Source: an uncultured bacterium
Lineage (GTDB): Bacteria > Patescibacteriota > Minisyncoccia > Phycocordibacterales > PALSA-1337
Length of the DNA stretch: 64,000 bases
Reading direction: 5' to 3'
Assembly: GCA_903839725.1 (NCBI GenBank)
Contig: CAIMDG010000002.1
Location: 1,078 to 65,077 of the forward strand
Shown here: piece after piece, positions 8,598 to 49,653 of the stretch
Layout: each line of letters begins with the position of its first letter
Position numbering within the stretch: position 1 is the stretch's first letter
The notes under the pieces: model-generated
Seen by the model: the letters and a program-made list of their open reading frames with translations, nothing else
Databases searched by the model: none
What the model was told of the DNA's origin: nothing
Translations under genes and position numbers: made by a program

Positions 8598-8729
8598 TTG
8601 AGTCATACCGGCCTCCGCCGGTATCCAGAATTACTAACATTATATTCTGTTTGTACTTCTGGACCCCGACCTTCGTCGGGGTGACACGCTTCATGCTATA
8701 ATTCAAGCACTATACATTAATATATATCT

Positions 8730-29273: not shown

Positions 29274-29321
29274 ATGTGGGTGAAAGCTTATCAGAATCGA
29301 TAATAAAACGCAAGATGTAGA

Positions 29322-29437
29322 GGCACACAGGGTACATGCACTCATTTCTCGCACAAGTTTGTAAACATTGTGGTACGCGGTGTAATGTACATGTCTCTAA
29401 ACTTGTGCGAGAAATGAGTGCATGTACCCTGTGTGCC
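29322..29437. repeat. Palindromic element copy 3: 38-bp perfect inverted repeat (29322-29359 / 29400-29437) around a 40-nt core; outer imperfect inverted repeat 29303-29456
   Basis: ggcacacagggtacatgcactcatttctcgcacaagtt / aacttgtgcgagaaatgagtgcatgtaccctgtgtgcc are exact reverse complements. The core tgtaaacattgtggtacgcggtgtaatgtacatgtctcta differs from copy 1 at one base. Confidence 0.85.
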
Positions 29438-29481
29438 CTGCTACTTTGCGTTTTATATAGTTCTGATATACTTTCACCATT

Positions 29482-34262: not shown

Positions 34263-34985
34263 CTATTTATTTCCAAGAAATACTTGTTCCAACACTTTTT
34301 TTTCAATCAATTCTTTTGGATTACCCTCTGCATATATTTTTCCTTTATCCAATACATATGCTCTTGTAGTTATTTCGAGAAGTGACTTCAAATTGTGTTC
34401 GACGATGAATATGGCCGTCTTTCTGCGTTCATTAATTTCTCTGATTTTCTGGAAAACTTCCTTAACAATCTTTGGTGATAATCCAAGTGATGGTTCATCA
34501 AGCAGAAGTACCTTGGGATCCGTCATGAGTCCTCGGGCGATAGCGAGCATCTGTTGTTGTCCACCAGAGAGAGTACCTGACTTTGCTTTGAGTTTTCCTC
34601 GAAGTGCCGGGAACAATTCAAGTACATTTTCGATTCGCTCCTTACGTTCATTACTACTTTTAACATTAAATCCTCCGATCTCAAGATTTTCAAGGACAGT
34701 AAGGTGGTGAAAAACTCGGCGACCCTGCGGTACGAATGATACACCTCGTTCAACTACCTCATGCGATATAGGTTTGAACTGTTGACCTTCCCAAAAAATA
34801 TGTCCAGAACCAATAGGAGCTAAACCAAATATAGCTTTGAGAATAGTAGATTTTCCAGCACCATTTGGACCCATAAGTGCAACAATTTCTCCTTCATCGA
34901 TGAATACCGATGCTCCATCGAGTGCTTTAACGCCACCGTAATGGACGTGAATATTTTTGAGTTCGAGGAGATTTTTTTGTTTCAT
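34263..34985 (-). CDS. livF: Branched-chain amino acid ABC transporter ATP-binding protein (LivF-like)
   Basis: GPNGAGKST Walker A, LSGGQQQM signature, LLDEPSLGL Walker B. LivF-like length (240 aa). Confidence 0.85.
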   Translation of the reverse strand: MKQKNLLELKNIHVHYGGVKALDGASVFIDEGEIVALMGPNGAGKSTILKAIFGLAPIGSGHIFWEGQQFKPISHEVVERGVSFVPQGRRVFHHLTVLENLEIGGFNVKSSNERKERIENVLELFPALRGKLKAKSGTLSGGQQQMLAIARGLMTDPKVLLLDEPSLGLSPKIVKEVFQKIREINERRKTAIFIVEHNLKSLLEITTRAYVLDKGKIYAEGNPKELIEKKVLEQVFLGNK

Positions 34986-35065
34986 GGACTGAATTACGAT
35001 ACTACTTTATCTAGTAGGCATATTCTACCATGTATACCTGAAATGAGAATATTGTGAACTGAAAC

Positions 35066-36136
35066 CTATTTTTCGAACATTTTGAGATATTGATCTGCCA
35101 TTACTTCACCATTTTTGGTAAATGAATAACTAGACATACCACCAGTTACTCCGCCGAGAAAATATGTCTTGAGTCCAGAAGCAATATTGTTTGTCGAGTG
35201 ACTTTTTGCATATACATCAATGAGTTTGAAAATATCATACGTTACGGAATCATAAAATGGCGACGCAGATTCTATTCCGTACTGTGTTTTGTATACCACC
35301 AAGAAATCTTTGTAAGCTTGAGTTTCTGTAGTAAATCCAGCATCAAAGCAAACTGACTTTAAACCAAATTCTTTTGGTGTAGGTGTATATTCACAGGCAT
35401 TCACATCGCCTATCAGAAGTGGCCTATAATTCAGGACGTCCAATTCCTTGTAAACCAATCCTACTGCTTTGCCACTCGTTGGAACATAAAACAAATTATT
35501 GATGCCTTGCGACTTTAATTTCATGAGTTGTGTGCGGAATGTATTGTCAGTTGCTGAATATGTTTCCTGGCTAATAATTTTTGCACCTAGTTTGTCTTGC
35601 AATGTCATCGCCACGGACTTTGAATAATCTTGCGCTTCATACAAAAGACCAATTTTTGAATCCACTGGTAATTTCAAGGCATAATTTGCCATTGCTCCAG
35701 CGATCGAGAGTGCGTCTGGTATAAATCGGATAACTTCGTCGCCTGTCTTGCGTATTTCAGATGAACCCGCGTATGCGGTGAGAATAAGATTACCACCAGT
35801 TTTTGCAAGTGGTGCCAGGGCCAGAACACTTCCACTGCAACTTACATAGAATACATGAACGTCTTGTTGTGTGAGTTTCAAATATAATGATACAGCTTTC
35901 TTGGTATCACATTGATCATCTTCGAAAATGAGTTGGAATGAAGTCGAACTTGCGAGCTTGATAGAGTTCGCAACTTCCTCGCCAATAAGTCCTGCCGGAC
36001 CACTGAGTGGACCAATTATGCCGATCTTTATTGGCTGATCAATAGAATGGTTTTGCTTTTTAGTAGTGATTACCCAAATAAGAGCCATTATAATAAGAAT
36101 GGAAATTATAATTAGACTAGTGCGAGATGGTTTCAT
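35066..36136 (-). CDS. ABC transporter substrate-binding protein, type I (LivK/Peripla_BP_6-like), membrane-anchored
   Basis: N-terminal TM anchor then IKIGIIGPLSGPAGLIGEEVANSIKLA, the typical start of Leu/Ile/Val-binding-protein family receptors. Confidence 0.75.
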   Translation of the reverse strand: MKPSRTSLIIISILIIMALIWVITTKKQNHSIDQPIKIGIIGPLSGPAGLIGEEVANSIKLASSTSFQLIFEDDQCDTKKAVSLYLKLTQQDVHVFYVSCSGSVLALAPLAKTGGNLILTAYAGSSEIRKTGDEVIRFIPDALSIAGAMANYALKLPVDSKIGLLYEAQDYSKSVAMTLQDKLGAKIISQETYSATDNTFRTQLMKLKSQGINNLFYVPTSGKAVGLVYKELDVLNYRPLLIGDVNACEYTPTPKEFGLKSVCFDAGFTTETQAYKDFLVVYKTQYGIESASPFYDSVTYDIFKLIDVYAKSHSTNNIASGLKTYFLGGVTGGMSSYSFTKNGEVMADQYLKMFEK

Positions 36137-36149
36137 ATATCAAAAATAA

Positions 36150-36902
36150 TTATTCCCCCAAATAAGCTTCAATAACATCCTTCCTCGCCAACACCACACT
36201 TGGTGCACCTTCTGCCAAAAGTTCACCAGAATCTAGAACGTAAATATGATCCGACAATTCACGGATAAGTTCCATATTGTGTTCCACTAGAATGACAGCT
36301 TTACCTTGATCGCGAAGTTCCCTCATGACAGTTACAACCGTTTTGACCATTTCTGGAAAGAGTCCGGCAAATGGTTCATCGAAGAAAATAACATTAATAT
36401 CTCCAACTCCCGAATGAATGATAGCAAGAATACGCGCAATCTCGAGAAGTTTACGTTGTCCATATGAAAGATTTTTAGCGAGTTCACCTCTCTTTTCCCA
36501 GAGACCAACTTTCTTCAACACTTCTTCGGCTTTTTCGAGGTGAAGTTTGCTGTGCTTTTCGAACAATGATTTCCAAATACTTCTTTCGGTGAGTACGACA
36601 AGAATATTGTCGAGGACGAGCATCTGCTCGAATAATCTCACATCTTGGAATGTTCTCGTAATACCAAAGAGTGGTACCTCGTGGGCATTCATTCTCTTGA
36701 GTGTTTCAACACCAGCAATGATTATTTCCCCACCATCCGCAGGAATCATACCTGTCAAAGTGTTGATGAGTGTAGACTTACCCGAACCATTTGGACCGAT
36801 GATGCCCGTAATTTTTCCTGCCTCAAATGAAATCGAAAGTTTGTTAACAGCATGAACGCCGTCGAAGTTTTTGCTTAGTTTGTTGGTGGAGAGGATGGGC
36901 AT
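36150..36902 (-). CDS. livG: Branched-chain amino acid ABC transporter ATP-binding protein (LivG-like)
   Basis: GPNGSGKST Walker A, LSYGQRKLLEIAR signature, IFFDEPFAGL Walker B. Start at ATG 36902 (MPILSTNKLSKNF) to match the LivG N-terminus and avoid overlap. Confidence 0.85.
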   Translation of the reverse strand: MPILSTNKLSKNFDGVHAVNKLSISFEAGKITGIIGPNGSGKSTLINTLTGMIPADGGEIIIAGVETLKRMNAHEVPLFGITRTFQDVRLFEQMLVLDNILVVLTERSIWKSLFEKHSKLHLEKAEEVLKKVGLWEKRGELAKNLSYGQRKLLEIARILAIIHSGVGDINVIFFDEPFAGLFPEMVKTVVTVMRELRDQGKAVILVEHNMELIRELSDHIYVLDSGELLAEGAPSVVLARKDVIEAYLGE

Positions 36903-36916
36903 GTTACACAAATTAC

Positions 36917-38077
36917 CTATTTCAATTCCTGCCACATTTCTTGACCTTTACTGTCAAAATAATGAAGACCAATAGGAACAACAGGATTAACATTCGAGCC
37001 GAGCGTCAATGATCCTGCAGCCCCATTCCAATCCTTAATGGCAGCTAGGTAGTTTTTTATACATACTGTATCTGTTGAACTCTTACATGATTCCATTGCT
37101 TCTTTTACGAGATATACTGCATCATACGAAGTTGCCAAATACGCAATATTTGTTGGAGGTAATTGTTTGTATGCAGTTTTATATGCTTCTATGAATGCAG
37201 CTGTTTTTGAGTTGGCTGAACTTACGAAAGCGTCAGTCGTGAATATGCGAGGATTATTAAGCAATCCACCAGATTGATCATTGATAGCTGCGGACAATGA
37301 TTGTGCACCAGCAATTATTGGATACGTACTGAGCAGACCGAGCTCTTTCATTTGCTTGTAGAATGTAACACTTGCACCCGCACCCTGAGATGCAAATAAT
37401 ATTGCATCTGGCTTTTGTTTATTGATCTTCAATATATATGATCGCAAATCATTTACATCAGAATTGAATGCATCATTCGAAATGACTTGTCCACCCAATT
37501 TCACGAATTCGGCCAAGAATGCTTTGTACACTCCAACTGGAAAATCTTTATTTTCATATAATGCAGCTACTTTTCTATATCCCTGTGAATATGCATACGC
37601 AGCTGACTTGGCAGTATAGAACTCACTCGAAGGAGAATTTCGGAAAATATAACTGCCTGAATTCGTGACTGCAGGTGAAGAAGTAATTGAGGCAATAATG
37701 ACTACTTTGGCTTTTTCTACGATTGGGGCGATAGCGAGAGTCTCGGTACTACAATGTCCACCAAGAATAACATTAACCTTATCTATATTGATCAACTTAT
37801 TTGCAACAGTTGCTGAAGTTGCCCCATCACACTTACCATCTTCAACTATGAGATTCAATTTCTTTCCGAGAATACCTCCGGCTTGATTAATTTCATTCTG
37901 AGCGATCAAAACTGACTGCATTGCTGGTTCTCCGTAACTTGCAGCAGAGCCAGTGAGTGGTGATATAAGACCGATACTAATTTGATTACCCTGATCTTTT
38001 TTGAAGACACCAGAAACCGCAATCACAATAATAATGATAACAATAATCCCCCAAGTTACTTTTTTATTCATGCTCAT
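36917..38077 (-). CDS. ABC transporter substrate-binding protein, type I (LivK-like), membrane-anchored
   Basis: TM anchor then ISIGLISPLTGSAASYGEPAMQSVLIAQNEINQAGGILGKKL. Confidence 0.75.
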   Translation of the reverse strand: MSMNKKVTWGIIVIIIIVIAVSGVFKKDQGNQISIGLISPLTGSAASYGEPAMQSVLIAQNEINQAGGILGKKLNLIVEDGKCDGATSATVANKLINIDKVNVILGGHCSTETLAIAPIVEKAKVVIIASITSSPAVTNSGSYIFRNSPSSEFYTAKSAAYAYSQGYRKVAALYENKDFPVGVYKAFLAEFVKLGGQVISNDAFNSDVNDLRSYILKINKQKPDAILFASQGAGASVTFYKQMKELGLLSTYPIIAGAQSLSAAINDQSGGLLNNPRIFTTDAFVSSANSKTAAFIEAYKTAYKQLPPTNIAYLATSYDAVYLVKEAMESCKSSTDTVCIKNYLAAIKDWNGAAGSLTLGSNVNPVVPIGLHYFDSKGQEMWQELK

Positions 38078-38130
38078 AAATTAGGTTGTAATACCTAAAA
38101 TATACCAAGAATACGATCTTTGAGCTATAG

Positions 38131-39246
38131 CTACCTCCACACCCCTAACACCCCATCTTTCATCACCTGAACCTGTACGTTGATATCTTCAACTGAATGA
38201 TTTGGTGCAAAACTGATCGTACCATTTGGAGTCGTGAACTTTGTTTTGGCGATATAACTAGCAACCTGTGAATTATCAGAACTATGTGCAATAGCTTGTG
38301 CCAAGACGTACGTAGCATCAAAGAATTTATCAACGGACTTTGTAGCCGTCATGTTATAAGCCTTCTGGTACATATCCGCGAATAATTTCGTGGTAACTTC
38401 CCAGTTCAAGATTACAACATTGTTGAGTGGACTCTTGTCAGTCTCATTGGCAAAAGCATCGAGCGCTCCGTTGTATGACATAACGATTGGGGTGAAACCA
38501 AGTTGCTTCGCTTGTTTGAGGAACGTGAGCGGATCATTTCCGACCATGTCGAGGAATACGCCATCCACACCTTTATTCTTTAATTTGATAATTGTAGTTT
38601 TCCAATCATTGTCACCAATCTGTGTATATGGGTTGTCGATAACATCTGCACGACCAAGATCCTTCATGACACCAGCGAGCGTCTTTTCGATTTCAACACC
38701 GAAGCTCGACTGATAATGAACAACAGCCAATTTCTTGATTGTGCTTGAGGCGATGAATGGTTTGATCTTCTGAATTGTCTTGTCGAAGTCTGTAAGCATC
38801 ACGAAACTCTGATCATTCAAGTCAAAGCCACCCGCAATACGGAAGTTCGAAGGAGAAACAAAGGCAATCTTGTCATTCAAGGCAATTGGCAGAATAGGTT
38901 GGGCGGTGAAGTCAAAGACGCCACCAATAACACCGTTTACATGATCGATAGTTACCAGTTTGTTAAAAGCTGAAACTGCCAACTTACCGTCAGTGTGATC
39001 ATCTTCGAAAATGACTTCAACTTTTCTACCGTTGATTCCACCTGCGTCATTGATATTCTTTACTGCCAAGTTAATACCATTCTTGCCATATTCACCCCAA
39101 GGTGCAGCGAAACCTGACAAAGATAATACAGCCCCAATCTTTATTGGATTATTACTTTGTGGCTTTTGACTAGGTCTTGAAACAGAAACACCGATAATCA
39201 CAATGATAATAATAGCGACGACGGTCCATATAATTTTTTTATTCAT
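38131..39246 (-). CDS. ABC transporter substrate-binding protein, type I (LivK-like), membrane-anchored
   Basis: Start at ATG 39246 (MNKKIIW...). IKIGAVLSLSGFAAPWGEYGKNGINLAVKNINDAGGINGRKVEV. Confidence 0.75.
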   Translation of the reverse strand: MNKKIIWTVVAIIIIVIIGVSVSRPSQKPQSNNPIKIGAVLSLSGFAAPWGEYGKNGINLAVKNINDAGGINGRKVEVIFEDDHTDGKLAVSAFNKLVTIDHVNGVIGGVFDFTAQPILPIALNDKIAFVSPSNFRIAGGFDLNDQSFVMLTDFDKTIQKIKPFIASSTIKKLAVVHYQSSFGVEIEKTLAGVMKDLGRADVIDNPYTQIGDNDWKTTIIKLKNKGVDGVFLDMVGNDPLTFLKQAKQLGFTPIVMSYNGALDAFANETDKSPLNNVVILNWEVTTKLFADMYQKAYNMTATKSVDKFFDATYVLAQAIAHSSDNSQVASYIAKTKFTTPNGTISFAPNHSVEDINVQVQVMKDGVLGVWR

Positions 39247-39342
39247 ATATTTTAGGTACATTAAAAGCCGCTTGTGGCGACTTGCACATAGTATATACTC
39301 GTGATATATTATGTCCATAATTCGGCGAAAAGCGAATACTAT

Positions 39343-40107
39343 ATGAATACAAGCTTTCTAGATATATTCAATTTAGGAGACACGTCCAAGGAGGTGCTTC
39401 TTGATATCATCGCCCATGGCGTTTCCTCTGTGGCTGTTATTGCCCGTCGCCTCGGTATGCCAAAGTCGACTGTATATGACGCCATTACCCCCCTTTTGGA
39501 CCAGAGTTTGGTGAATGAATACAGCAATAACCACGGTAAAACCTTTGGTATCTCCGACAATGAACAGCTCAAGCGTGCCCACGAAGAAAAGATCAATGAG
39601 CTCAAAAAGGCCCAGTCTTCCCTGCTCTCATTCATCGGTACACATAACCAAAAAGAAAGTTCAGTTTCTCCGAAGGTAAAATTCTATGCGGGTAATCTGG
39701 GTATCAAGCAGGCGTTCCGCGATATGATGTGGGAAAAGAACATCACCGAAACGTATCTTTTTTGGCCAGCCAAAGAGATGCTCGATATCGACGAAGACTT
39801 CTTCAAATGGCACGGTACTCAGCGTTTCAAATATGGTGTTTACATATATGCGATCGAGACATACAAGGACCGTATCATTCAACGCAATGCGAAACAGAAA
39901 TGGATGCACAATACCAAAGATAGTTTGTCTGAAGCTCGCTATCTACCAAAAGGTGTAAATTGCAAAATGAGTTTCTGGATTTATGGTGACAAATGTCTCT
40001 TTGCTTCTGGCGGTAAAGAAAAGATTGCGTTTGCAGTTCACAGCAAAGAATTCTCGTCCCTGATGAAACTCCTCTGGAAAAATATGTGGGAGAATGCGGA
40101 GAAATAA
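39343..40107 (+). CDS. TrmB-family transcriptional regulator
   Basis: N-terminal HTH LGDTSKEVLLDIIAHGVSSVAVIARRLGMPKSTVYDAITPLLDQSLV plus about 170-aa TrmB-type C-terminal domain. Divergent from the SBP gene at 39246. Confidence 0.7.
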   Translation: MNTSFLDIFNLGDTSKEVLLDIIAHGVSSVAVIARRLGMPKSTVYDAITPLLDQSLVNEYSNNHGKTFGISDNEQLKRAHEEKINELKKAQSSLLSFIGTHNQKESSVSPKVKFYAGNLGIKQAFRDMMWEKNITETYLFWPAKEMLDIDEDFFKWHGTQRFKYGVYIYAIETYKDRIIQRNAKQKWMHNTKDSLSEARYLPKGVNCKMSFWIYGDKCLFASGGKEKIAFAVHSKEFSSLMKLLWKNMWENAEK

Positions 40108-40136
40108 AAAACACCGAATGATCGGTGTTTTTTATT
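40106..40136. terminator. Bidirectional hairpin terminator
   Basis: aaaaaacaccgaatgatcggtgttttttattttt. Confidence 0.7.
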
Positions 40137-40137
40137 T

Positions 40138-41217
40138 TTAATTCGGCAACTTTCCTCCCTCAATCGTTCCAATCTTTAATTCTGGAATGCGCACACCATT
40201 TTCATCAAACACAATCTTTCCATCAGCCCCGACGAGGGTGACATGCTTCATATTGTTCACCCATGTAGCCTTATCTGAATTGTAACTTTGAGCTAGAAGC
40301 ATAAAAGCATTGTAACCAGTCTCTGAACCGATCGCCGGTTCGACACCATACATTTTCTTGTAAGCCTCATTGAACGTACTGCGGTACACGTTTGGAACGG
40401 TATAGAGAATACTTCCATTTAACACATTCATATTTCCGAGCACTTTCGCATAGTCACCAAATCCTGTTTGGATATTTGCGTCGAATACATACCGATATTT
40501 TGTGTGTGAGATTGAACCGAGCTCCTTTGCAAGAAGTCCGCCAGAAGTTGGTTTGACGATAAACACGATTACGTCTGGCTTGAATGAGATCGCTTTCAAA
40601 GCACTTGATTTGATATCCCGACCATCAGCTGAAACTTGGATTTCGTTGTATGGCATAGCAAATCCTTTTTCAAAACCTTGAGCAAAACGTTCAAAAGCCG
40701 AAGATCCTTTGTCGACAAACACAACGGCATTCTTGAATCCTTTACCAGCAACGTATTTACCAAGCTCAACTTCAGCTGGCACACTTCCTGGCCACAACTG
40801 AACAATGTTGTCATTCGCCGCTTCAATTCCTTGTTCAAAACCGAGAGCAACTGGCATACCAGTCTGCACAACGTCTCCATAGATCGAATCAATTGTAACC
40901 GTTGTCATGTTAATGAGACCATCAACATGATCAATACTTACAAGTTTCTTGTAGGCCGAAAGTCCTTTCTTGGAATCAAAACTGTCATCTTCAGTTATAA
41001 GCGAAATCTGTTGATTTATATGTGAACTATTCCATTCAGCCTGAGCGAGCTTTGCACCTTTGGCAAAACTATCACCGACAGCGGCATAATCACCGGTCAT
41101 TCCAGCAATCATGCCAAATGTGAGCTGTGTGGTTGGTTTCTTCGTATTAAACAAACCAATCATCACAATAACTAGAATTACCACAACTAGGCCTGAAATT
41201 TGATATTTTTTATTCAT
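40138..41217 (-). CDS. ABC transporter substrate-binding protein, type I (LivK-like), membrane-anchored
   Basis: Start ATG 41217 (MNKKYQISGL...). LTFGMIAGMTGDYAAVGDSFAKGAKLAQAEWN. Confidence 0.75.
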   Translation of the reverse strand: MNKKYQISGLVVVILVIVMIGLFNTKKPTTQLTFGMIAGMTGDYAAVGDSFAKGAKLAQAEWNSSHINQQISLITEDDSFDSKKGLSAYKKLVSIDHVDGLINMTTVTIDSIYGDVVQTGMPVALGFEQGIEAANDNIVQLWPGSVPAEVELGKYVAGKGFKNAVVFVDKGSSAFERFAQGFEKGFAMPYNEIQVSADGRDIKSSALKAISFKPDVIVFIVKPTSGGLLAKELGSISHTKYRYVFDANIQTGFGDYAKVLGNMNVLNGSILYTVPNVYRSTFNEAYKKMYGVEPAIGSETGYNAFMLLAQSYNSDKATWVNNMKHVTLVGADGKIVFDENGVRIPELKIGTIEGGKLPN

Positions 41218-41387
41218 ATAATGTGATTTATTTGTAACAATATTAGTATACATATATCAAATATAATCAAGAAATAAATCATAACTTTGAATATATACAT
41301 GAATTATATCCATATGTATCAATCCATATCTAAATATTAGTATGTCAGGAATATTGACACTTTCATACATAATGCTAGAATCTACAC

Positions 41388-42203
41388 ATGAAAATCAAAC
41401 AAAGTTCAATCATAGACCTCCTACAGCTCAGCAAAAAAGAGCAGGTCATTTTCAACCTACTCAACAATGAATCATCCACACCTGTATCACTAGCCAAGAA
41501 ATGCTCTATCCCCCGCCCTACCATATATATCACTCTCGAAAAGCTCCACAACCGTGGCTTAATCATAAAAAAGAAAATCTCACACAAAACCTACTGGCAA
41601 AAGAATTCTGATGATGAAATCGAGAGTCTCGCCTACCGATTCAAGGAGTTGCTTTCAGCAAGTAGTGCTACAAAGCAAGAAAAGATTTCCATCACTGATT
41701 CTTCACAGGTCGTTGTTCATCGTGGACAAAAAGCTATCTTCAAACTATTCTCCAGTCTAGTTGACGAACACGCTGGTGAAAAGATGATCGCACTTCAGGG
41801 AAATCTTGCAGGATATGCGTGGAGTAAGTTATTTAACGTGCAAGAAATTAACATCATCAACCAGAAGATTAAGAAAAATAAAGTTATTACGGAACTTGTT
41901 ACTTCTAGGGAGTGGTTCAAGAGTCAAACTGAACTCTTTGGTACAGGTTGGGCCAAAAACTTTGAAGGTAGAACGATTCGTATGCAGGATGTTGGGAACC
42001 AGTACTTGAATTACGCTAGTCAGATATTTATTTTCAGAGACAAAGTATATATTGACGCAATGTCGGATAAAGTCTTCATCGAAATAAAGAACCCAGAGAT
42101 TGCGAAGCTGCTGGTTTCAATTACGCAGTTTGTTCAAGATCATTCGGAGGTGTTGGATGCGAATAAACTTCTCAGAGAACTGATCAGTAACAATTCAAAA
42201 TAG
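41388..42203 (+). CDS. TrmB-family transcriptional regulator
   Basis: HTH LSKKEQVIFNLLNNESSTPVSLAKKCSIPRPTIYITLEKLHNRGLI plus TrmB C-terminal domain. Confidence 0.7.
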   Translation: MKIKQSSIIDLLQLSKKEQVIFNLLNNESSTPVSLAKKCSIPRPTIYITLEKLHNRGLIIKKKISHKTYWQKNSDDEIESLAYRFKELLSASSATKQEKISITDSSQVVVHRGQKAIFKLFSSLVDEHAGEKMIALQGNLAGYAWSKLFNVQEINIINQKIKKNKVITELVTSREWFKSQTELFGTGWAKNFEGRTIRMQDVGNQYLNYASQIFIFRDKVYIDAMSDKVFIEIKNPEIAKLLVSITQFVQDHSEVLDANKLLRELISNNSK

Positions 42204-43070
42204 TTATAACCTATACTCCCCAACCAAACCCTGTGGCCTATACAACATCAACAGTATCAATATAACACCATACACCACTTGACGCATTTGCGCTGCAATG
42301 TCATCTGGAAAACCGACGAAGCGCAGGACTTCCGGCAAAAGGATGAGACATATTGCCCCGATAACTGCACCCTTGTTATTCGCCATACCACCCAAGATAA
42401 CCACAGCCAGAATGAAGATGGATTCCGTCAAAGTGAAACTCGATGGATCGATAAATGTAATGTACGAAGCAAAAAGTGAGCCTGCCACTGCCGCCATTCC
42501 TGCCGAGACAACGAAGATGGCGAGCTTGTACCAGAGAACGCGGTAACCAAAGACTTGAATAGCTTTTTCATCTTCACGGATAGCCTTGAGCACACGACCA
42601 AACGATGAATTCGTAATGTAGTGACAAACACCAAAAACAATCAGAGCACAGACAACCGCAAGAACAAGGAACCAACTATTTTCAGAGAAAGTAAAACCGA
42701 ATATGCTTGGGCGAGGAATTCCAGGAATACCGAGCGGACCACGTGTGAGCGACTGCCAATTCAAGAAAATACTATAAATGATGACGTTGAAACCAAATGA
42801 ACCCAGTGCATAATAATCATCTTTGAATTTTGAAAGCACAAAACCTATCGCTAGACTCAACACTGCGGTAATGATAATACTGAAAAGCATAGCGAGAAAG
42901 AAATTCATGCCAACTGAAGTAAGCAGGATTGCTGTCACATATGCACCAATACCATAGAATGCTGCTTGAGTAATACTGAGCAGACCTGTGAATCCTACAA
43001 TCAAGTTCAAAGAAAGACCGAGAATGGCGTAGATCGAGATCAGGATGGCAATGTGTATGAGATATTCCAT
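42204..43070 (-). CDS. livM: Branched-chain amino acid ABC transporter permease (LivM-like)
   Basis: Eight or more TM helices. GIPGIPRP and EAAFYGIGAY-type motifs of the LivM family. Confidence 0.8.
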   Translation of the reverse strand: MEYLIHIAILISIYAILGLSLNLIVGFTGLLSITQAAFYGIGAYVTAILLTSVGMNFFLAMLFSIIITAVLSLAIGFVLSKFKDDYYALGSFGFNVIIYSIFLNWQSLTRGPLGIPGIPRPSIFGFTFSENSWFLVLAVVCALIVFGVCHYITNSSFGRVLKAIREDEKAIQVFGYRVLWYKLAIFVVSAGMAAVAGSLFASYITFIDPSSFTLTESIFILAVVILGGMANNKGAVIGAICLILLPEVLRFVGFPDDIAAQMRQVVYGVILILLMLYRPQGLVGEYRL

Positions 43071-43071
43071 A

Positions 43072-43938
43072 TTATTTCTTTAATATTCCCTGTGGTCTAA
43101 ACAACAAAAAAATAATCAATACTCCGAAGGCAATCGCATCTTTCCATTCACCGGAAATCTGCCAGATACCAAAGTTCTCGATAAAGCCGAGGAGGAATGC
43201 ACCGAGTACACCGCCATATACATTGCCGATACCACCGATGATACACGCAATCACACCTTTCAAGAGAAGTGACAATCCCATCGTTGGTTCTATACCAGTA
43301 TCAAAGCCAACGAGAATACCAGCGAGACCGGCGATCGCTGAGCCTATAAAAAATGTCCATCCGATAACTCTAACAGTATTGATACCAACGATCTTCGAAA
43401 CTTCCTCATCATCCCCCACTGCTTTGATAGCTTTACCGAACAATGTGTACCTGAACATGAGACCAATACCAACCATGATGAGAATTCCGAGAATGAGAAT
43501 GATAAGTTGTGTCTGCGTGATCACTCCGCCAAAAACGGTATATACCATTTCACTACCCGCATTTTTCGAAAGTGTCTGGAATTGACTCGTAAATAAAATA
43601 GCAATAATAGCCTGTAATGCTGTCATCACTCCGAGAGCAGCAACCAGAAGAACCATGCTTGATGATTTGCGAGTACGTAGTGGTGCGTATACAAAATGAT
43701 ATATAAGTACCCCAATAGTTCCTGCAATGAGAATACCGAGAGCAACAGAAACGAATATATCTAAACCGAGTATTTTATAGAAGAAGAAAACAGTATATCC
43801 ACCAACCGCCGCAAGAGCACCGTATCCCAAATCAAAGAATTTAGCTGTACCGTAAATCAGATTGAAACCGAGAGCGACCATGGCATATATCGCTCCAGCA
43901 ATGATTGAGTTGACGATGAGTTGAGGGATGATGTCCAT
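43072..43938 (-). CDS. livH: Branched-chain amino acid ABC transporter permease (LivH-like)
   Basis: Polytopic membrane protein. GYGALAAVGGY and EPTMGLSLLLKG motifs of the LivH family. 1-nt gap to livM. Confidence 0.8.
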   Translation of the reverse strand: MDIIPQLIVNSIIAGAIYAMVALGFNLIYGTAKFFDLGYGALAAVGGYTVFFFYKILGLDIFVSVALGILIAGTIGVLIYHFVYAPLRTRKSSSMVLLVAALGVMTALQAIIAILFTSQFQTLSKNAGSEMVYTVFGGVITQTQLIILILGILIMVGIGLMFRYTLFGKAIKAVGDDEEVSKIVGINTVRVIGWTFFIGSAIAGLAGILVGFDTGIEPTMGLSLLLKGVIACIIGGIGNVYGGVLGAFLLGFIENFGIWQISGEWKDAIAFGVLIIFLLFRPQGILKK

Positions 43939-44160
43939 GAATGTATGTAATACAGCTAAGTATACCCATTAAATAGGTACTTGAAAATAGACCATTATTT
44001 GATATCCTAAAGACTGAAAGGACCTCTATGAAATACGATCGACCAACGTGCACCTCAGCAACAACAACTCGGCCACCCATTTCGGCGAATTTTTCACCGC
44101 CACCCGCGGAACCCCGCCCGAAACCGGCTGCCAAACCGAAAAAGTAGGGACCGAAGCTGC

Positions 44161-44194
44161 ACAACAAAAGCCCACGAACTTGTTCGTGGGCTTT
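44161..44194 (-). terminator. Rho-independent terminator after the SBP gene
   Basis: 11-bp stem agcccacgaac/gttcgtgggct followed, on the minus strand, by ttttgttgtg. Confidence 0.65.
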
Positions 44195-44220
44195 CATACT
44201 AATACAATTAACTAATCAAC

Positions 44221-45333
44221 TTACTGAACATCTACAAACTTACCATCTTTGGCGATTTTTATCATTGCAGGTTTCTGAACATCTCCATTTGATTCAAATG
44301 TAATAACGCCACTTGCGCCTTGATAATTATTACCAATCTTTAATAAATTTTCTTTTATTGAATCACCAGAAGTTCCCCCAGCTTTGATAGCTCTAAGTAA
44401 CAAGGTCATAGCATCATACCCTTCTGCGGTATACATTGTTGGAGCATTTCCAAAACGAGCCTTGTATCTTTCCGTAAAAGTTTTACTTGCTTCATTTGTT
44501 GGAACCACAGTGGCTGAAACTAAAACCCCATTTACATCCTTTCCTCCAACATCGAAGAATTCTTTTGTATCTACCGATTCGTCCAGAGCTGCAAATTGAA
44601 CATGTAAACCTAGATTCTTTGCTTGCTTAAAGATTAAATTGAATTGCTTATAAAATGACGCGACGAAGATTACATCAACTCCAGCCCCCTTCGCCTTTAA
44701 TAATTGAGTTCTAAAATCTGTGTCTTTTGCATTAAAGGTATCTTTTGTCACAACTTGACCACCTGCTTTAGCAAAAGTATCACTAGCATCACTAACTTCT
44801 TGGACCATCGTATCCTGACTATTGTCGTTTATGAAAGCTGCTTTTTTAAAGCCTTTTGAATACACGTACTCTGCCAAAGAATTTGCCCTGACTGAATCTG
44901 AAGCAATTGTTCTGAACATATATTTACCAGCATTAGTCAAAGTCTTTGAAGTTGCTGCTGGTGTAATTATCAATATTTTTTTAGGATCGGTAATTGGTAA
45001 TACTGATAAAACTTCAGAAGAACATACTGGGCCATACAAAGCATCTACCTTATCAATATTTAATAACTTAGATACAGCAGTAACACCATCTGCTGAGGCA
45101 CAATTGTGATCATCTTCAATAATGAAATTAACCTTATCTTTCATACCACTTTCTTCAATTGCCATAATAGCAGCATTGCGAGAACTTTCAGCATATGAAG
45201 CCAAATCTCCAGAAAGTGGCAATACGGCTCCAATCTTAACAGGACCAATCTCAGTATTTGAATTACGTGTTGCAGAAATAATGATTATCACAACCACAAC
45301 AATTCCAATCACCCACCAAATACCTTTTTTCAT
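44221..45333 (-). CDS. ABC transporter substrate-binding protein, type I (LivK-like), membrane-anchored
   Basis: TM anchor then VKIGAVLPLSGDLASYAESSRNAAIMAIEESG. Confidence 0.75.
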   Translation of the reverse strand: MKKGIWWVIGIVVVVIIIISATRNSNTEIGPVKIGAVLPLSGDLASYAESSRNAAIMAIEESGMKDKVNFIIEDDHNCASADGVTAVSKLLNIDKVDALYGPVCSSEVLSVLPITDPKKILIITPAATSKTLTNAGKYMFRTIASDSVRANSLAEYVYSKGFKKAAFINDNSQDTMVQEVSDASDTFAKAGGQVVTKDTFNAKDTDFRTQLLKAKGAGVDVIFVASFYKQFNLIFKQAKNLGLHVQFAALDESVDTKEFFDVGGKDVNGVLVSATVVPTNEASKTFTERYKARFGNAPTMYTAEGYDAMTLLLRAIKAGGTSGDSIKENLLKIGNNYQGASGVITFESNGDVQKPAMIKIAKDGKFVDVQ

Positions 45334-45390
45334 AATAAAGAATAATTACAAATAATATGTCAATTATAGTTGATACTCCCATTTCTGCAA

Positions 45391-45422
45391 CAACAAAAAA
45401 CCACCCTCTCGAGTGGTTTTTT
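45391..45422. terminator. Hairpin terminator (sequence duplicated at 47512)
   Basis: caacaaaaaaccaccctctcgagtggtttttt. The identical 32-mer recurs at 47512-47543. Confidence 0.7.
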
Positions 45423-45437
45423 ACTGTTCAAATTAAC

Positions 45438-46538
45438 TTATGGCTGTATTGTTATTGGTTTACCATCTTTAATCATACGTATTACCGCTCCAGAAACAAC
45501 AAGTCCATCAGAATCAATACTAAGATTCCCCAAGGCCCCTTGAACGTTTTTGATTGTATACAATTTTTCAGCAATCTGTTCTGACGTCGGCAATGTATTT
45601 GAGTCTACTTTTTCTGCAGCATCTGAAATTAAATGAATTATATCGTAAGCGTTTCCTGCCCCGAGTGAAGGTGGTTTATTATAGATTTTTGAATAAGAAT
45701 CTATAAATGATAATGTTGTATCAGCACCATTTACGTACCAATCTCCTTCATATATTTCAGGATGATCACTTTGTTCAAACGATTCTATAGAAGTAACAGG
45801 CGTAGTGATTCCATTTTCTTTAAGTTGTTTTGCAATAAGATCCAATTCTGGACTAAAGGCAAACAATACGTATATATCCGGATGATTGGATTGTGCCTTA
45901 GCAATCATCGTTCTAAAATCTTTTGTGCCAAAATCAAACATTTCTTGATCTACTATCTGTATGTCTGTATTTTGTATATCTTTTTGCAAAGAATGTATCA
46001 CGGCCGTTACACCTTGTATTTTAGCACCCAATATTGCCACCCTATGATATCCTCGCTTTTGTAATTCTGGCACAAAGATCTTCGTCTCCTCATAAGGTGG
46101 GGTCCAGTGAATAAAATTATAATGGCCATTTGCGACATTTGGATCAGAAGCAATACCAAACTGAATAACACGTGCTTTTTCAGCAACTGGATTGACCGCA
46201 TTACCTGCTGCCGAAGCAAGTGTGACGATTGCCGCTACATGATCAATAGATATAAGTTTTTGGGCTGCACTTACTGCCTTTGACGCATCAAATGAATCAT
46301 TTTCAAGTATTACCTTGTATTGCCATTTATTATTTGTAGTTGAAGCCAACTCAGCTTCAGCCATGCGAACCGCGTATTTAATCCCATCGCCCAAAAAGGC
46401 AACATTTCCAGTTAAAGGTGCGATGACACCAATTTTTATTATTTTATTATCATTTAATACTATGTGCTTAGAGTAATTAGCTCCAATCAAAATACCGGCC
46501 AAAATGACGATTATTACGACAAAAATCTTTGTTTTCAT
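45438..46538 (-). CDS. ABC transporter substrate-binding protein, type I (LivK-like), membrane-anchored
   Basis: TM anchor then IKIGVIAPLTGNVAFLGDGIKYAVRMAEAE. Confidence 0.75.
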   Translation of the reverse strand: MKTKIFVVIIVILAGILIGANYSKHIVLNDNKIIKIGVIAPLTGNVAFLGDGIKYAVRMAEAELASTTNNKWQYKVILENDSFDASKAVSAAQKLISIDHVAAIVTLASAAGNAVNPVAEKARVIQFGIASDPNVANGHYNFIHWTPPYEETKIFVPELQKRGYHRVAILGAKIQGVTAVIHSLQKDIQNTDIQIVDQEMFDFGTKDFRTMIAKAQSNHPDIYVLFAFSPELDLIAKQLKENGITTPVTSIESFEQSDHPEIYEGDWYVNGADTTLSFIDSYSKIYNKPPSLGAGNAYDIIHLISDAAEKVDSNTLPTSEQIAEKLYTIKNVQGALGNLSIDSDGLVVSGAVIRMIKDGKPITIQP

Positions 46539-46714
46539 ATATACATATTATTAGTAGTAATATGTATCCTTAATATCATTACCCCAAAACTTGTTTATAT
46601 CTTTAGAAGAGTAGCTAAATATATATTCATATTTAAAGCCATATTTTGATATAAAATTTAATAGTGTGCGTCCATAGTGACAAAATCTGTATATGTGATA
46701 ACATATATATCATT

Positions 46715-47509
46715 ATGTCAATGGATACAAAAATATACAAAGAATTAAACAGGTTCGGCTTATCAGATAAATCAGCCAAAGTGTATGCTGTTCTACTTGA
46801 TCTTGGTGGAGCCTACCCTTCACGTATAGCTGAATCAGCCCATCTAAACCGTACAACTGTTTATAAAATATTAATTGATCTTTCCATAAAAGGTCTAATA
46901 AATGAAATAAACAAAAATGGTAAAGTCTTCTATCAAGTAGAACGTCCATCTCAGCTTATTAAATATGCAAAAAATCGTAGGGATACAGCGGATGAACAAT
47001 ACGAGAGAATAAAGAATCTTATGCCAGAAATAGAAGGTCTGTACTCACTCACGCCCAATAAACCAAAGATACGATACTTTGAGGATAGCTCTAGTGTCGC
47101 CTCTATATTCGAAGATCAAGTCGATGTAAAGAAACCTTACGAAATGGTGGGTTTTGCAAATATTGAAAGGCTTGAAAAATTTCTAAAACCTTCATTTATA
47201 AAATGGTATATAAAAGAAAAGGAAAGAAAAGGAATTACTACCAGAGGAATTCTGCCTGACACCAAATTAAACAGAACATACAATGAACGTGTATACAAAG
47301 TTATAAACAAAAAATTCCAGTTAAATAACATTCGCTACATTCCGAAAGAAGAATTTCCTTTTAATGGTGAGATAACGATTTACGGAGAAAACAAGATGTC
47401 TATAATTAATTTTATTGACGAACAAGCTGTGGGGATTATTATCGAAGACAAAGCAATTCACGACATGATGGTTAGAATATTTGAGCTCTCTTGGAAAGGT
47501 TCCCAGTAA
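46715..47509 (+). CDS. TrmB-family transcriptional regulator
   Basis: HTH LSDKSAKVYAVLLDLGGAYPSRIAESAHLNRTTVYKILIDLSIKGLI. Start at the internal ATG (MSMDTKIYKEL), not the longest ORF. Confidence 0.7.
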   Translation: MSMDTKIYKELNRFGLSDKSAKVYAVLLDLGGAYPSRIAESAHLNRTTVYKILIDLSIKGLINEINKNGKVFYQVERPSQLIKYAKNRRDTADEQYERIKNLMPEIEGLYSLTPNKPKIRYFEDSSSVASIFEDQVDVKKPYEMVGFANIERLEKFLKPSFIKWYIKEKERKGITTRGILPDTKLNRTYNERVYKVINKKFQLNNIRYIPKEEFPFNGEITIYGENKMSIINFIDEQAVGIIIEDKAIHDMMVRIFELSWKGSQ

Positions 47510-47511
47510 CC

Positions 47512-47545
47512 CAACAAAAAACCACCCTCTCGAGTGGTTTTTTGT
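47512..47545. terminator. Hairpin terminator (duplicate of 45391)
   Basis: caacaaaaaaccaccctctcgagtggttttttgt. Confidence 0.7.
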
Positions 47546-47562
47546 TCTACGACTTTTACCTT

Positions 47563-48681
47563 TTACTGTCCTAACGTAACCGGCACACCACCTTTGATCA
47601 TTCTGACAACCGCCTTTGAGTTAACTAGATGGTCAGTTCCCATATTCAAGCCTGTTCCGAGAGCCCCATCAAAGTTTTTGATACTTGAAACCTTGGCATT
47701 GATTTGCTGACTGGTTGGGATGGTCTTTCCATCACCTGCTGCTTCGATAGATTGTACGAGCATGTTGAGTGAGTCGTATCCGTTGGCCGCACCGAACTTT
47801 GGTGCTTGACCGTATGTCTTTGTGTAGAGATCTACGAACCACTGTGTCGCGTCCGCATTATTCACGTACCACATACCTTCGAAGAGTGAGAGCTGATCTG
47901 AGAACTCGAATGTTTCCATTGTACTTACTGCGGTTTTAACACCTGCTGTGCGTAACTGTGTTGTAACCAATTCCAATTCTGGTGAAGAAAGTTCGAGGAC
48001 ATAGAGTTCAGCACCGAGATCTTTCACTTTACTGATCTGAGTACGGAAGTCGCGTGTTCCGGTAGTGATCATTTGAGTCGAAACTACTTGAATCCTTGAT
48101 TTACCGATTTCACTCAAGAAAGCATTAATGATCGCTGCACTTCCTGGGTTATCCTGCTGACCGAAGAAGACAATCTTATTGATATTACGTCTCTGTAATT
48201 CAGCAACGAACAACTTGGCATCTTCGTACGCTGGAGTGTAGTCAACATAGTTATATTCACCTGTTGCTACATGTGGATCTGAAGCAAAGTCATTGATATG
48301 AGGTATTTTTGCAGCTTCTGTGATTGGACTCACTACATTACCAACTGGTGAACCAAATGAGATGAGTGCATTCGCCTTATCAACACTGATGAGCTTATTT
48401 ACTACAGTTGCTGCATTTGATGGCTTGAATCCATCATCTTCAATCACAAGCTTGTAACTATACTTGAGATTCTTTGTGTCCAACTTACTGTATGCGAGCT
48501 CAATAGCATTTTTATTACTTTGACCAAGCATTGCTATGTTTCCGGTAAGTGGCAATGTAACTCCGATAGTAACAACTGGCTTTTGTGTGTTCGTACCTGG
48601 ATTTCTTGTAGAAAAACCTATAATACAAGCCACGATTACTATTCCAATAATACCTAATATGATTTTTGTTGTTTTATTCAT
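47563..48681 (-). CDS. ABC transporter substrate-binding protein, type I (LivK-like), membrane-anchored
   Basis: TM anchor then VTIGVTLPLTGNIAMLGQSNKNAIELAYSK. About 50% identical to the 45438 paralog. Confidence 0.75.
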   Translation of the reverse strand: MNKTTKIILGIIGIVIVACIIGFSTRNPGTNTQKPVVTIGVTLPLTGNIAMLGQSNKNAIELAYSKLDTKNLKYSYKLVIEDDGFKPSNAATVVNKLISVDKANALISFGSPVGNVVSPITEAAKIPHINDFASDPHVATGEYNYVDYTPAYEDAKLFVAELQRRNINKIVFFGQQDNPGSAAIINAFLSEIGKSRIQVVSTQMITTGTRDFRTQISKVKDLGAELYVLELSSPELELVTTQLRTAGVKTAVSTMETFEFSDQLSLFEGMWYVNNADATQWFVDLYTKTYGQAPKFGAANGYDSLNMLVQSIEAAGDGKTIPTSQQINAKVSSIKNFDGALGTGLNMGTDHLVNSKAVVRMIKGGVPVTLGQ

Positions 48682-48855
48682 ATATTTACTATTAATTATT
48701 AATGTGGTGAAATTATAACACGCAAATTGATTTTGTTATTTTTAAATATTAAATTGATGTATAAATACGGCTTATAATATAGGGTATTGTAGTTATCCAC
48801 ATATTTTGTTCGTTAAAAGTGACAAAATACATCATTCCTGCTATACTGTATACAT

Positions 48856-49653
48856 ATGAAAAATGAAACTATTATTCGTCATTTACAAAAGACTGGTCTG
48901 AGTGAAAAAACAGCTATAATTTACGCTACTCTCCTTGAATTGGGCGGTGCCTACCCTTCCCGCTTGGCTGAAGTGACCAAGCTCAATCGTAGTACCATAT
49001 ATAAAATTCTCCTTGAATTATCGATCAAAGGTCTCATTACCGAAATTGAACGTGGTAAAAAACTCTTCTACCAGATCGAAAATCCTGCGAAGCTCATTCG
49101 TTTTACAAAAACTCAGTCAGACATGGCACAAGAAGCATATGAAAAGACCCGTGACCTCATTCCTGAACTCGAAGGTATCTTTGCCATGAATCCAAACAAA
49201 CCTATCATCAGATACTTCAATGATGCTGATGGTATTATTTCCATCTATGAAGAAATGGTCTCACAAAAAAAGAAATACGAGATGATTTCATTCTCGCATG
49301 GTCAGGCTTTCAAGAATTATCTACCAGCAAAATCACTGTATACATTCGTCAAAGCAAAAGAGCGCTTTGGTATTACAACTCGCGCTATCATCCCAGATAC
49401 TGCCGAAAACAGAAAATATGACGAAGAAGTATTCAAGGGCCTAGACAAAAAAGCTTGGCCGGATATTCGTTACGTACCAAAGGAAGTATTCCCCTTTGAA
49501 GCGGAAATGACTTTGTACGACAATGACAAGCTTGCCATCACCAAACTTACTGGCGAAAAACTTATCGGTATTGTTATCGAAGACAAACTTGTTCACGACA
49601 TGTTCAAAATGATTTTTGAACTCCTCTGGAAGTCAGATCAAGTTAAGAAATAA
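48856..49653 (+). CDS. TrmB-family transcriptional regulator
   Basis: HTH LSEKTAIIYATLLELGGAYPSRLAEVTKLNRSTIYKILLELSIKGLI. About 55-60% identical to the 46715 paralog over full length. Confidence 0.7.
   Translation: MKNETIIRHLQKTGLSEKTAIIYATLLELGGAYPSRLAEVTKLNRSTIYKILLELSIKGLITEIERGKKLFYQIENPAKLIRFTKTQSDMAQEAYEKTRDLIPELEGIFAMNPNKPIIRYFNDADGIISIYEEMVSQKKKYEMISFSHGQAFKNYLPAKSLYTFVKAKERFGITTRAIIPDTAENRKYDEEVFKGLDKKAWPDIRYVPKEVFPFEAEMTLYDNDKLAITKLTGEKLIGIVIEDKLVHDMFKMIFELLWKSDQVKK

Follow-up and report, generated by a model that had tools for sequence, protein, structure and literature searches.

Why should two terminators be identical at every nucleotide when the genes that they follow have diverged to half identity or less? 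The question is raised by positions 45,391 to 48,855 of a 64-kb stretch of contig CAIMDG010000002.1, analysed here over its full length (the window), where two paralogous modules stand in tandem. Each consists of a gene for a LivJ-type substrate-binding protein (SBP) and a divergently transcribed gene for a TrmB-family regulator, and behind each SBP gene lies the same 32-mer, CAACAAAAAACCACCCTCTCGAGTGGTTTTTT. We find that the repeat has the form of an intrinsic terminator, and the comparison with orthologous loci indicates that most likely one copy was recently written over the other, the exact sequence not being required. A second shared element, the 11-mer AGTGACAAAAT upstream of both TrmB genes, falls in the −35 region of a conserved promoter. 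We hold this account as a whole (tandem modules of a Liv locus, a recently homogenised terminator, and a motif in the TrmB promoter −35) to be probable, with moderate confidence.

The features on which the argument turns are as follows.

44160-44194, minus strand: T0, terminator 3' of SBP0 from our own scan; stem different, with only the CAACAAAA flank in common with T1 and T2
44221-45333, minus strand: SBP0, LivJ-type SBP (Pfam), with a predicted promoter of its own after T1, read from the sequence (TTGCAG at 45383-45388, spacer, TATAAT)
45391-45422, minus strand: T1, 32-nt terminator copy 3' of SBP1 (exact repeat, fold, own terminator scan)
45438-46538, minus strand: SBP1, LivJ-type SBP of 366 aa (Peripla_BP_6, E 7.5e-40)
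46715-47509, plus strand: TrmB1, TrmB-family regulator of 264 aa, or 262 aa if the start is 46721 (PF01978, E 2.8e-12)
47512-47543, minus strand: T2, second copy, identical to T1, where TrmB1 and SBP2 converge (exact repeat, fold, own terminator scan)
47563-48681, minus strand: SBP2, LivJ-type SBP of 372 aa, 41% identical to SBP1
48856-49653, plus strand: TrmB2, TrmB-family regulator of 265 aa, 50% identical to TrmB1

An identical terminator in two diverged modules

An exact search of the window places the 32-mer at 45391 and 47512, as an earlier note on this DNA had reported. Allowing up to three mismatches, the window contains no third copy, and 100 shuffles gave none. The repeat is not an assembly artefact, since it is also found on more than ten metagenome contigs that were assembled independently for this organism, from an ENA groundwater-type series. 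Five of the same-species contigs from independent assemblies (L002, L007, L012, L033 and L034) terminate inside or exactly at the 32-mer; these ends are best read as assembly breaks, and the short repeat appears to fragment assemblies here. Another contig, mjUihQBG, has two small open reading frames (ORFs) in the place expected for TrmB2.

The sequence surrounding the repeat is far less alike. At the DNA level the SBP genes are 62%, the TrmB genes 66% and the intergenic regions 66% identical. A sliding comparison of SBP1 with SBP2 gives 53-57% up to the stop codon, 94-100% over the 32-mer and 29-53% beyond it, with sharp borders on both sides. The earlier note had both SBP gene coordinates right, as the ORF listing and Pfam confirm, and its view of paralogous SBP-TrmB modules is borne out by a window that holds four divergent SBP/TrmB pairs and seven SBPs; its figure of about 50-60% for protein identity was overstated when set against the values measured above. 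The two units measure 2121 and 2142 nt, and SBP1-TrmB1 and SBP2-TrmB2 would be the halves of an old tandem duplication of about 2.1 kb, each comprising terminator, SBP, divergent promoters and TrmB. Because a related locus, L020, contains both modules in the same order, the duplication predates the split from L020.

In the sense of the SBP genes, the minus strand, the hairpin of the 32-mer reads AAAAAACCACUC-GAGA-GGGUGGUUUUUUGUUG and folds as A6-CCACUC-GAGA-GGGUGG-U6, in which a stem of 6 bp, one of them U-G, closes a GNRA (GAGA) loop. Stem-loop and U-tract together (AAAAAACCACUC-GAGA-GGGUGGUUUUUU) reach −22 to −23 kcal/mol (z −4.9 to −6.3). The hairpin is asymmetric, the G-U pair and the GNRA loop being found only in the SBP sense, so that the SBP transcript has the stronger fold: T1 gives −23 kcal/mol on the minus strand (z −6.3) versus −13.6 on the plus strand, and T2 −22.1 versus −16.3. 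The position is that of an intrinsic terminator as well, close behind stop codons and at the end of a transcription unit; T1 ends 15 nt from the SBP1 stop (45438) and T2 ends 19 nt from the SBP2 stop (47563), while on its other side T2 begins 2 nt from the TrmB1 stop (47509). With an A-tract before and a T-tract after the stem, the 32-mer is a predicted Rho-independent two-way terminator, which in vivo would halt transcription from both sides and more strongly for the SBP transcript. T1 lies between the SBP1 stop and the SBP0 promoter, which follows it directly on the minus strand, and would insulate SBP1 from that promoter; T2 would keep the transcripts of the convergent genes TrmB1 and SBP2 from continuing, antisense, into one another. 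Fold, position, and the adjoining SBP0 promoter or convergent genes all support the earlier note in calling the 32-mer a terminator that marks a transcription-unit boundary. In Rfam nothing was found at the hairpins or promoters, the sole match being a sub-threshold one to RNAI at T2 (25 bits versus a gathering threshold of 47).

The built-in terminator scan missed T1 and T2 by absorbing the T-run into the stem, and our own scan detects both on both strands. It brings the A-tract/hairpin/T-tract terminators in the window to about 13, that is, T1, T2 and some 11 others, whose stems all differ except that T1 equals T2. Within the 64 kb, therefore, the 32-mer is not the generic terminator of this genome, and the concern raised in the earlier note that it might be a common terminator sequence finds no support there. 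A different two-way terminator, AAAAAACACCGA-ATGA-TCGGTGTTTTTT at 40105-40135, lies between another convergent pair (the TrmB-like gene at 39343-40107 and the SBP gene at 40138-41253) and fills the same architectural slot as T2. Unlike these two slots, the TrmB-like gene at 41388-42203 abuts livM with zero spacer.

Orthologous loci and the origin of the identity

Orthologous loci were obtained through homologues of TrmB1, and orthology was assigned by protein identity. SBP1 has orthologues in L020 (L020_8571, 68%) and L029 (71%), with an SBP1-like gene in L023 (L023_8727, 47%); those of SBP2 are found in L025 (80%), L028 (74%) and L020 (L020_13161, 64%), and those of TrmB2 are P0043 (83%) and P0032 (77%). 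The 32-mer accompanies none of these SBP genes, and it is absent from the orthologous SBP loci of five related species (L020, L023, L025, L028 and L031). L025 has no hairpin whatever, its SBP2 orthologue abutting livH, and L031 has none at the orthologous position. L028 carries CAACAAAGCCCACTCTTTGTGGAGTGGGCTTTG in place of the 32-mer, with the hairpin CAACAAAGCCCACTC...GAGTGGGCTTTG, and L020 has hairpins other than the 32-mer; L023 has AACAAAAACCACCCTTTGGGGAGGGTGG, which has in common with the 32-mer only the 5' arm AACAAAAACCACCCT. Since the paralogues are older than the species splits and yet the terminators have turned over between species, purifying selection cannot account for 32 identical positions out of 32, and the identity has to be of recent date.

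A second tract in the same gene family points in the same direction. The SBP1 and SBP2 orthologues of L020 are 83% identical over their final 81 nt (8571-8651 and 13161-13241), compared with about 50% elsewhere, and the SBP1 orthologue ends in the SBP2-type C-terminus DSKAVVRMIKGGVPVT rather than the SBP1-type VSGAVIRMIKDGKPIT. The SBP1-type ending is taken as ancestral because the SBP1-like gene of L023 has a similar DGKP-containing C-terminus, ITKAVLRTIKDGKPTT. The L020 3' end is a gene-conversion tract between the same two SBP paralogues, and it lends independent support to homogenisation. In the window, the copying would have proceeded by short-tract gene conversion or by replication template switching at the hairpin; alternatively, the hairpin would act as a self-maintaining island of identity. 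Where the earlier note had left the choice between homogenisation and strong selection, the first fits both the differing terminators of the orthologues and the L020 conversion, and the second is unsupported.

The 22-nt core AAACCACCCTCTCGAGTGGTTT gave two matches among 185,579 species genomes, four in JGI metagenomes and none in viral contigs, and the six foreign contigs carry one copy per locus. One match follows an NYN-domain gene, one lies between two flagellin genes, one follows the gene for ribosomal protein L27, and for two more, on the short contig L017 and the Absconditabacterales contig L015, the gene context could not be assigned. If its shape is fixed (A3, 6-bp stem, tetraloop, T3), a terminator has about 10^6 possible sequences, and public genomes hold some 10^7 to 10^8 terminators, by order-of-magnitude reasoning with no computation; because this sequence space is small, convergence should produce a few cores of identical sequence in about 10^12 bases. 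We read the core in unrelated genomes, behind unrelated genes, as such convergence. The earlier note's view of the 32-mer as a marker of modules therefore stands for its position at the module boundaries here and fails as to specificity, the core recurring behind flagellin, L27 and NYN genes.

Several points weigh against recent copying between T1 and T2. The remaining foreign match, in the Saccharibacteria metagenome-assembled genome contig CAZIEY010000001.1 (L014, 2303-2333), is a hairpin identical over 28 of 28 nt, and the two SBP genes that converge on it, both of LivJ type, each have a TrmB-like gene as partner. Proteins encoded at that locus are only 22-29% identical to any protein of the window, and the TrmB promoter motif is absent from the locus; we treat the match as coincidence, an odd one if there is no link to such modules. 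A hairpin that travels with SBP-TrmB modules across the candidate phyla radiation (CPR), as L014 suggests, was rejected as the principal explanation on account of that low identity, the lack of the promoter motif, and the position of the other five matches behind NYN, flagellin, L27 and unknown genes. Conversion of the RecA type normally depends on homologous flanks, and those of T1 and T2, only about 55-60% identical, are too diverged for ordinary RecA-dependent conversion. The copy count covers 64 kb, and more copies are possible elsewhere in the genome; the comparison set holds no relative above 85% identity by which the copying event could be dated; and the termination and transcription start sites discussed here are sequence-based predictions.

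Other explanations of the identity have to be weighed against these data. The hairpin might be a recombination site, the SBP1-TrmB1 unit having been inserted, or being excisable or amplifiable, by crossover between the terminators, which would then serve as joints for cassette shuffling. One complete module, no more and no less, does lie between the direct repeats, whose period is 2121 nt, and the minimum length for homologous recombination is close to 32 nt. Gene content from livH to TrmB2 varies in every relative: L025 reads livH-SBP2o-TrmB2o, L028 livH-SBP-SBP2o-TrmB2o, and L020 has two extra genes between the modules. L020 nonetheless keeps both modules in the same order, which makes their juxtaposition old, and about 30 same-species contigs with SBP0, SBP1 or SBP2 include no deletion, circle-junction or amplification variant. 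The G+C content at third codon positions (GC3) of SBP0-SBP1-TrmB1, 0.24-0.29 versus 0.38-0.44 for the flanking livH/livM and SBP2-TrmB2, is low but stays within the range of the window (z −0.7 to −1.5), and on this ground a foreign origin of the three genes was rejected. Among window ORFs of at least 150 aa there is no integrase or transposase, and the modules carry their own promoters, so that they do not resemble integron-like (attC) cassettes. We consider a recombination site unlikely. The same doubt attaches to the broader idea that terminators of CPR Liv loci double as recombination joints, T1 and T2 around SBP1-TrmB1 being the footprint of such an event: it is improbable, though if true, whole SBP-plus-regulator units would be copied, swapped or lost via short identical hairpins, and a genome-reduced symbiont could change its uptake specificity one cassette at a time, with a single permease at the centre.

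Purifying selection on the exact sequence for an extra role, such as a protein or RNA binding site that co-ordinates both SBP transcripts, would explain why the identity extends over all 32 positions, even to the loop and the CAAC flank, for which a plain terminator has no need, and why the same 28 nt stand behind an SBP gene in the Saccharibacteria TrmB-SBP locus. It sits poorly with the five related species whose SBP orthologues lack the 32-mer, with the core behind flagellin, L27 and NYN genes of other organisms, and with the distant proteins and missing promoter motif of L014; we regard it as very unlikely. The chance is slighter still that the two sites independently received a small palindromic element, mobile or dispersed, of the repetitive extragenic palindrome (REP) or miniature inverted-repeat transposable element (MITE) kind. 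The 32-mer is a palindrome and its borders are sharp, and six contigs of other taxa contain the identical 22-nt core; but REP- or MITE-like dispersal is not seen in the window, whose two copies in 64 kb are both at paralogous positions, each foreign locus has a single copy, no target duplication or terminal repeats exist beyond the hairpin itself, viral contigs gave no matches, and a few identical cores are expected by convergence in any case.

Promoters and structure of the TrmB regulators

The second element shared by the modules, AGTGACAAAAT, is exact at 46676-46686 and 48818-48828, 39 nt before the ATG of TrmB1 (46715) and 38 nt before that of TrmB2 (48856). The earlier note had placed it at about −40 of both genes, which is close, with positions (46679 and 48820) that needed correction. 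The predicted promoters of the two intergenic regions are listed here.

46665-46704, plus strand: TrmB1 promoter region; TGTGCGT box at 46665-46671, −35 GTGACA at 46677-46682 inside AGTGACAAAAT, extended −10 TGaTAACAT at 46696-46704
48807-48847, plus strand: TrmB2 promoter region; TGTTCGT box at 48807-48813, −35 GTGACA at 48819-48824, extended −10 TGcTATACT at 48839-48847
48712-48739, minus strand: predicted SBP2 promoter from the promoter scan; ATAACA-16-TATAAT with an upstream TG

The promoter scan returned GTGACA-17-TATACT for TrmB2 and GTGACA-16-TAACAT for TrmB1, each with an upstream TG, and a gene for the sigma-70 factor RpoD is present in the window. Alignment of nine TrmB1- and TrmB2-type promoters from seven distinct loci gives an invariant pattern, TGTnYGT-N5-GTGACA followed by 16-17 nt that include the extended −10 (TGnTAnnnT). 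Each TrmB1- or TrmB2-type gene is preceded by exactly one TGTnYGT-N5-GTGACA, and the pattern is absent from the rest of those loci and of the window. The 11-mer is thus readily seen as the predicted −35 hexamer GTGACA with its A-rich downstream flank. The ATG follows the −10 by 10 nt in TrmB1 and by 8 nt in TrmB2, and the distance is 6-10 nt to the annotated ATG in eight of the nine promoters; the 18 nt of L029 possibly reflect an alternative start. Given so short a distance, the TrmB mRNAs are probably leaderless or nearly so. The SBP2 promoter stands back to back with the TrmB2 promoter, about 70 nt apart, and its −10 and −35 are conserved, as read by eye, in the intergenic regions of L025 and L028.

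The earlier note had also suggested that the motif is a TrmB operator. First of all it is the −35 of a conserved extended −10 promoter, and a test for dyad covariation was negative: a dyad of the form T-rich-TGT-N12-ACA-A-rich is visible, but arm complementarity is 2.22 of 4 within promoters versus 2.19 between them, with no gain over sliding by 1-2 nt. The dyad-symmetric operator ATTTTGT-N12-ACAAAAT, good by eye in W2 and L020b, was rejected when the arm-swap and sliding controls revealed no excess complementarity, and a TGM-like GTGATA/TATCAT near the TrmB1 start was set aside as not conserved in L029 or L020. What keeps an operator possible is the TGTnYGT box, 5 nt upstream of the −35. It is specific to the TrmB1/TrmB2 subfamily and absent from the promoters of the window's two other TrmB-like genes, and it is the best candidate for a regulator (auto-regulatory) site, a role that is plausible, if unproven. 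As for chance, which the earlier note had named as a hazard in AT-rich DNA, AGTGACAAAAT with one mismatch is found four times versus 3.0 expected, which is chance level, but its homologous position and its conservation in orthologues are non-random.

Both regulators begin with a TrmB winged helix (PF01978; 46.7 bits for TrmB1 and 45.3 bits for TrmB2 versus a gathering cut-off of 25.6), and an alignment-profile search of PDB sequences finds TrmB (3qph, E 4.8e-5). Past residue ~75 neither protein has a Pfam match at E≤0.01, the C-terminal sugar-binding effector domain included. An AlphaFold (AF2) model of TrmB1 built from 48 homologues has a mean pLDDT (predicted local distance difference test) of 92; its best full-length fold match is TrmBL2 (PDB 5bpd, E 7e-14, 14-16% identity), and its C-terminal domain matches PLD-like folds. 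In PMC4158304 and PMC3419521, a C-terminal sugar-binding domain is described for TrmB and TrmBL1, and TrmBL2 is without a sensor domain. TrmB1 and TrmB2 are thus short proteins of the TrmBL2 type that lack the sugar-binding domain of TrmB and TrmBL1.

The Liv-type locus and comparison with known systems

The stretch from SBP0 to TrmB2 is the right-hand end of a larger locus, the rest of which spans 34263-43938 on the minus strand. Its genes, from the ORF listing and Pfam, are these.

34263-34985, minus strand: LivF
35066-36136, minus strand: SBP (Peripla_BP_6, Pfam)
36150-36935, minus strand: LivG
36917-38077, minus strand: SBP (Peripla_BP_6, Pfam)
38131-39318, minus strand: SBP (Peripla_BP_6, Pfam)
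39343-40107, plus strand: TrmB-like gene
40138-41253, minus strand: SBP (Peripla_BP_6, Pfam)
41388-42203, plus strand: TrmB-like gene
42204-43070, minus strand: LivM
43072-43938, minus strand: LivH

The locus as a whole has one LivHMGF set for its seven SBPs, and its four SBP/TrmB pairs are head to head. It has the components of a Liv-type (HAAT) importer, namely Peripla_BP_6 proteins, two BPD_transp_2 permeases and two ABC ATPases, one with a BCA_ABC_TP_C tail. The window is chromosomal, also holding rpoB, rpoC, rpoD, dnaG, hisS and typA, and the nearest named homologues belong to 'Patescibacteria group', 'Candidatus Taylorbacteria' and 'Parcubacteria group'. The modules thus belong to an ABC uptake locus of Liv type (branched-chain amino-acid type) on the chromosome of an uncultured Patescibacteria/CPR bacterium.

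A gene-free gap of 283 nt (43939-44220) separates the livH start from the SBP0 stop. It contains a G+C-rich patch of about 120 nt (~44040-44160), unusual for a genome of 41% GC, with a fold z of only −1.5; the patch is not conserved in L020, L023, L025 or L028. In the leader of the TrmB-like gene at 39343-40107 stands the 26-nt GTCCATAATTCGGCGAAAAGCGAATA (39311-39336), nearly unchanged upstream of the corresponding L020 gene (about 4065-4100), and it could represent a conserved hairpin in the 5' leader or a small ORF upstream of the gene.

Two further repeats were seen elsewhere in the window. Two copies of an element of about 128 nt, at 1036-1163 and 29321-29448, precede typA and a response-regulator gene. 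The element is a long, perfect hairpin whose 39-nt arms enclose a conserved 46-nt centre, GTAAACATTG(G/T)GGTACGCGGTGTAATGTACATGTCTCT; the copies differ in their arms yet keep complementarity, and in Rfam only sub-threshold, generic long-hairpin (microRNA precursor) matches were found. It could be a structured non-coding RNA or a MITE-like palindrome. Tandem pilin-like paralogues (N_methyl, PKD) at 3235-4617 and 4656-6170 are 84-85% identical in their 3' parts over about 450 nt, which indicates a recent duplication or conversion.

The observation of the 32-mer is real and non-random. It is tidy, ordinary genome biology, a new instance of known things and of modest interest, and its use is that of a worked example in which a perfectly conserved non-coding 32-mer is a recently homogenised terminator rather than a new regulatory element. 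In CPR genomes, each LivJ-type binding protein appears to have a short TrmBL2-like regulator of its own as partner, and these regulators share a defined promoter (TGTnYGT-N5-GTGACA-extended −10-ATG), probably leaderless, that is directly testable. The TrmB-family regulator presumably controls the adjoining SBP gene and itself. A 32-nt repeat at contig ends also matters for binning and synteny calls. Searches of the full-text literature on TrmB with 'Patescibacteria' or 'candidate phyla radiation' returned nothing on SBP-regulator pairing, and a search on bidirectional terminators with gene conversion returned nothing.

T1 and T2 resemble the bidirectional Rho-independent terminators found between convergent genes in having a G+C-containing stem-loop, an A-tract before it and a T-tract after it, 2-19 nt from stop codons. 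They differ from the usual kind in their 100% identity at paralogous positions, next to genes of only 41-50% identity, and in the asymmetry of the hairpin. The modules recall the trehalose/maltose ABC cluster of Thermococcus litoralis and Pyrococcus furiosus (PMC4158304), where the gene for the winged-helix regulator TrmB adjoins an importer SBP gene. Here, by contrast, the host is a bacterium (CPR), the SBP is of LivJ type and not MalE type, the regulator has no sugar-binding C-terminal domain, and neither a TACT-N3-AGTA nor a TGM palindrome is seen. TrmBL2 of the Thermococcales (PDB 5bpd, 5box) offers the same build of about 262 aa with a winged helix, a long helix and a PLD-like C-terminal domain. 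Whereas TrmBL2 is an abundant, largely non-specific chromatin protein, there are four paralogues here, each tied to one SBP gene, and a subfamily-specific promoter motif.

In Escherichia coli, LivJ and LivK share LivHMGF, several binding proteins thus serving one translocator. The locus described here likewise clusters several Peripla_BP_6 SBPs with a single LivH/LivM/LivG/LivF set, but it has seven SBPs, four of them with dedicated TrmB-type regulators instead of Lrp-type control. Finally, a patch of identity within diverged duplicates, together with the 81-nt converted 3' end in L020, is familiar from the concerted evolution of tandem paralogues; unlike the usual case, the tract shared by T1 and T2 is only 32 nt long, is purely non-coding and coincides with a hairpin.

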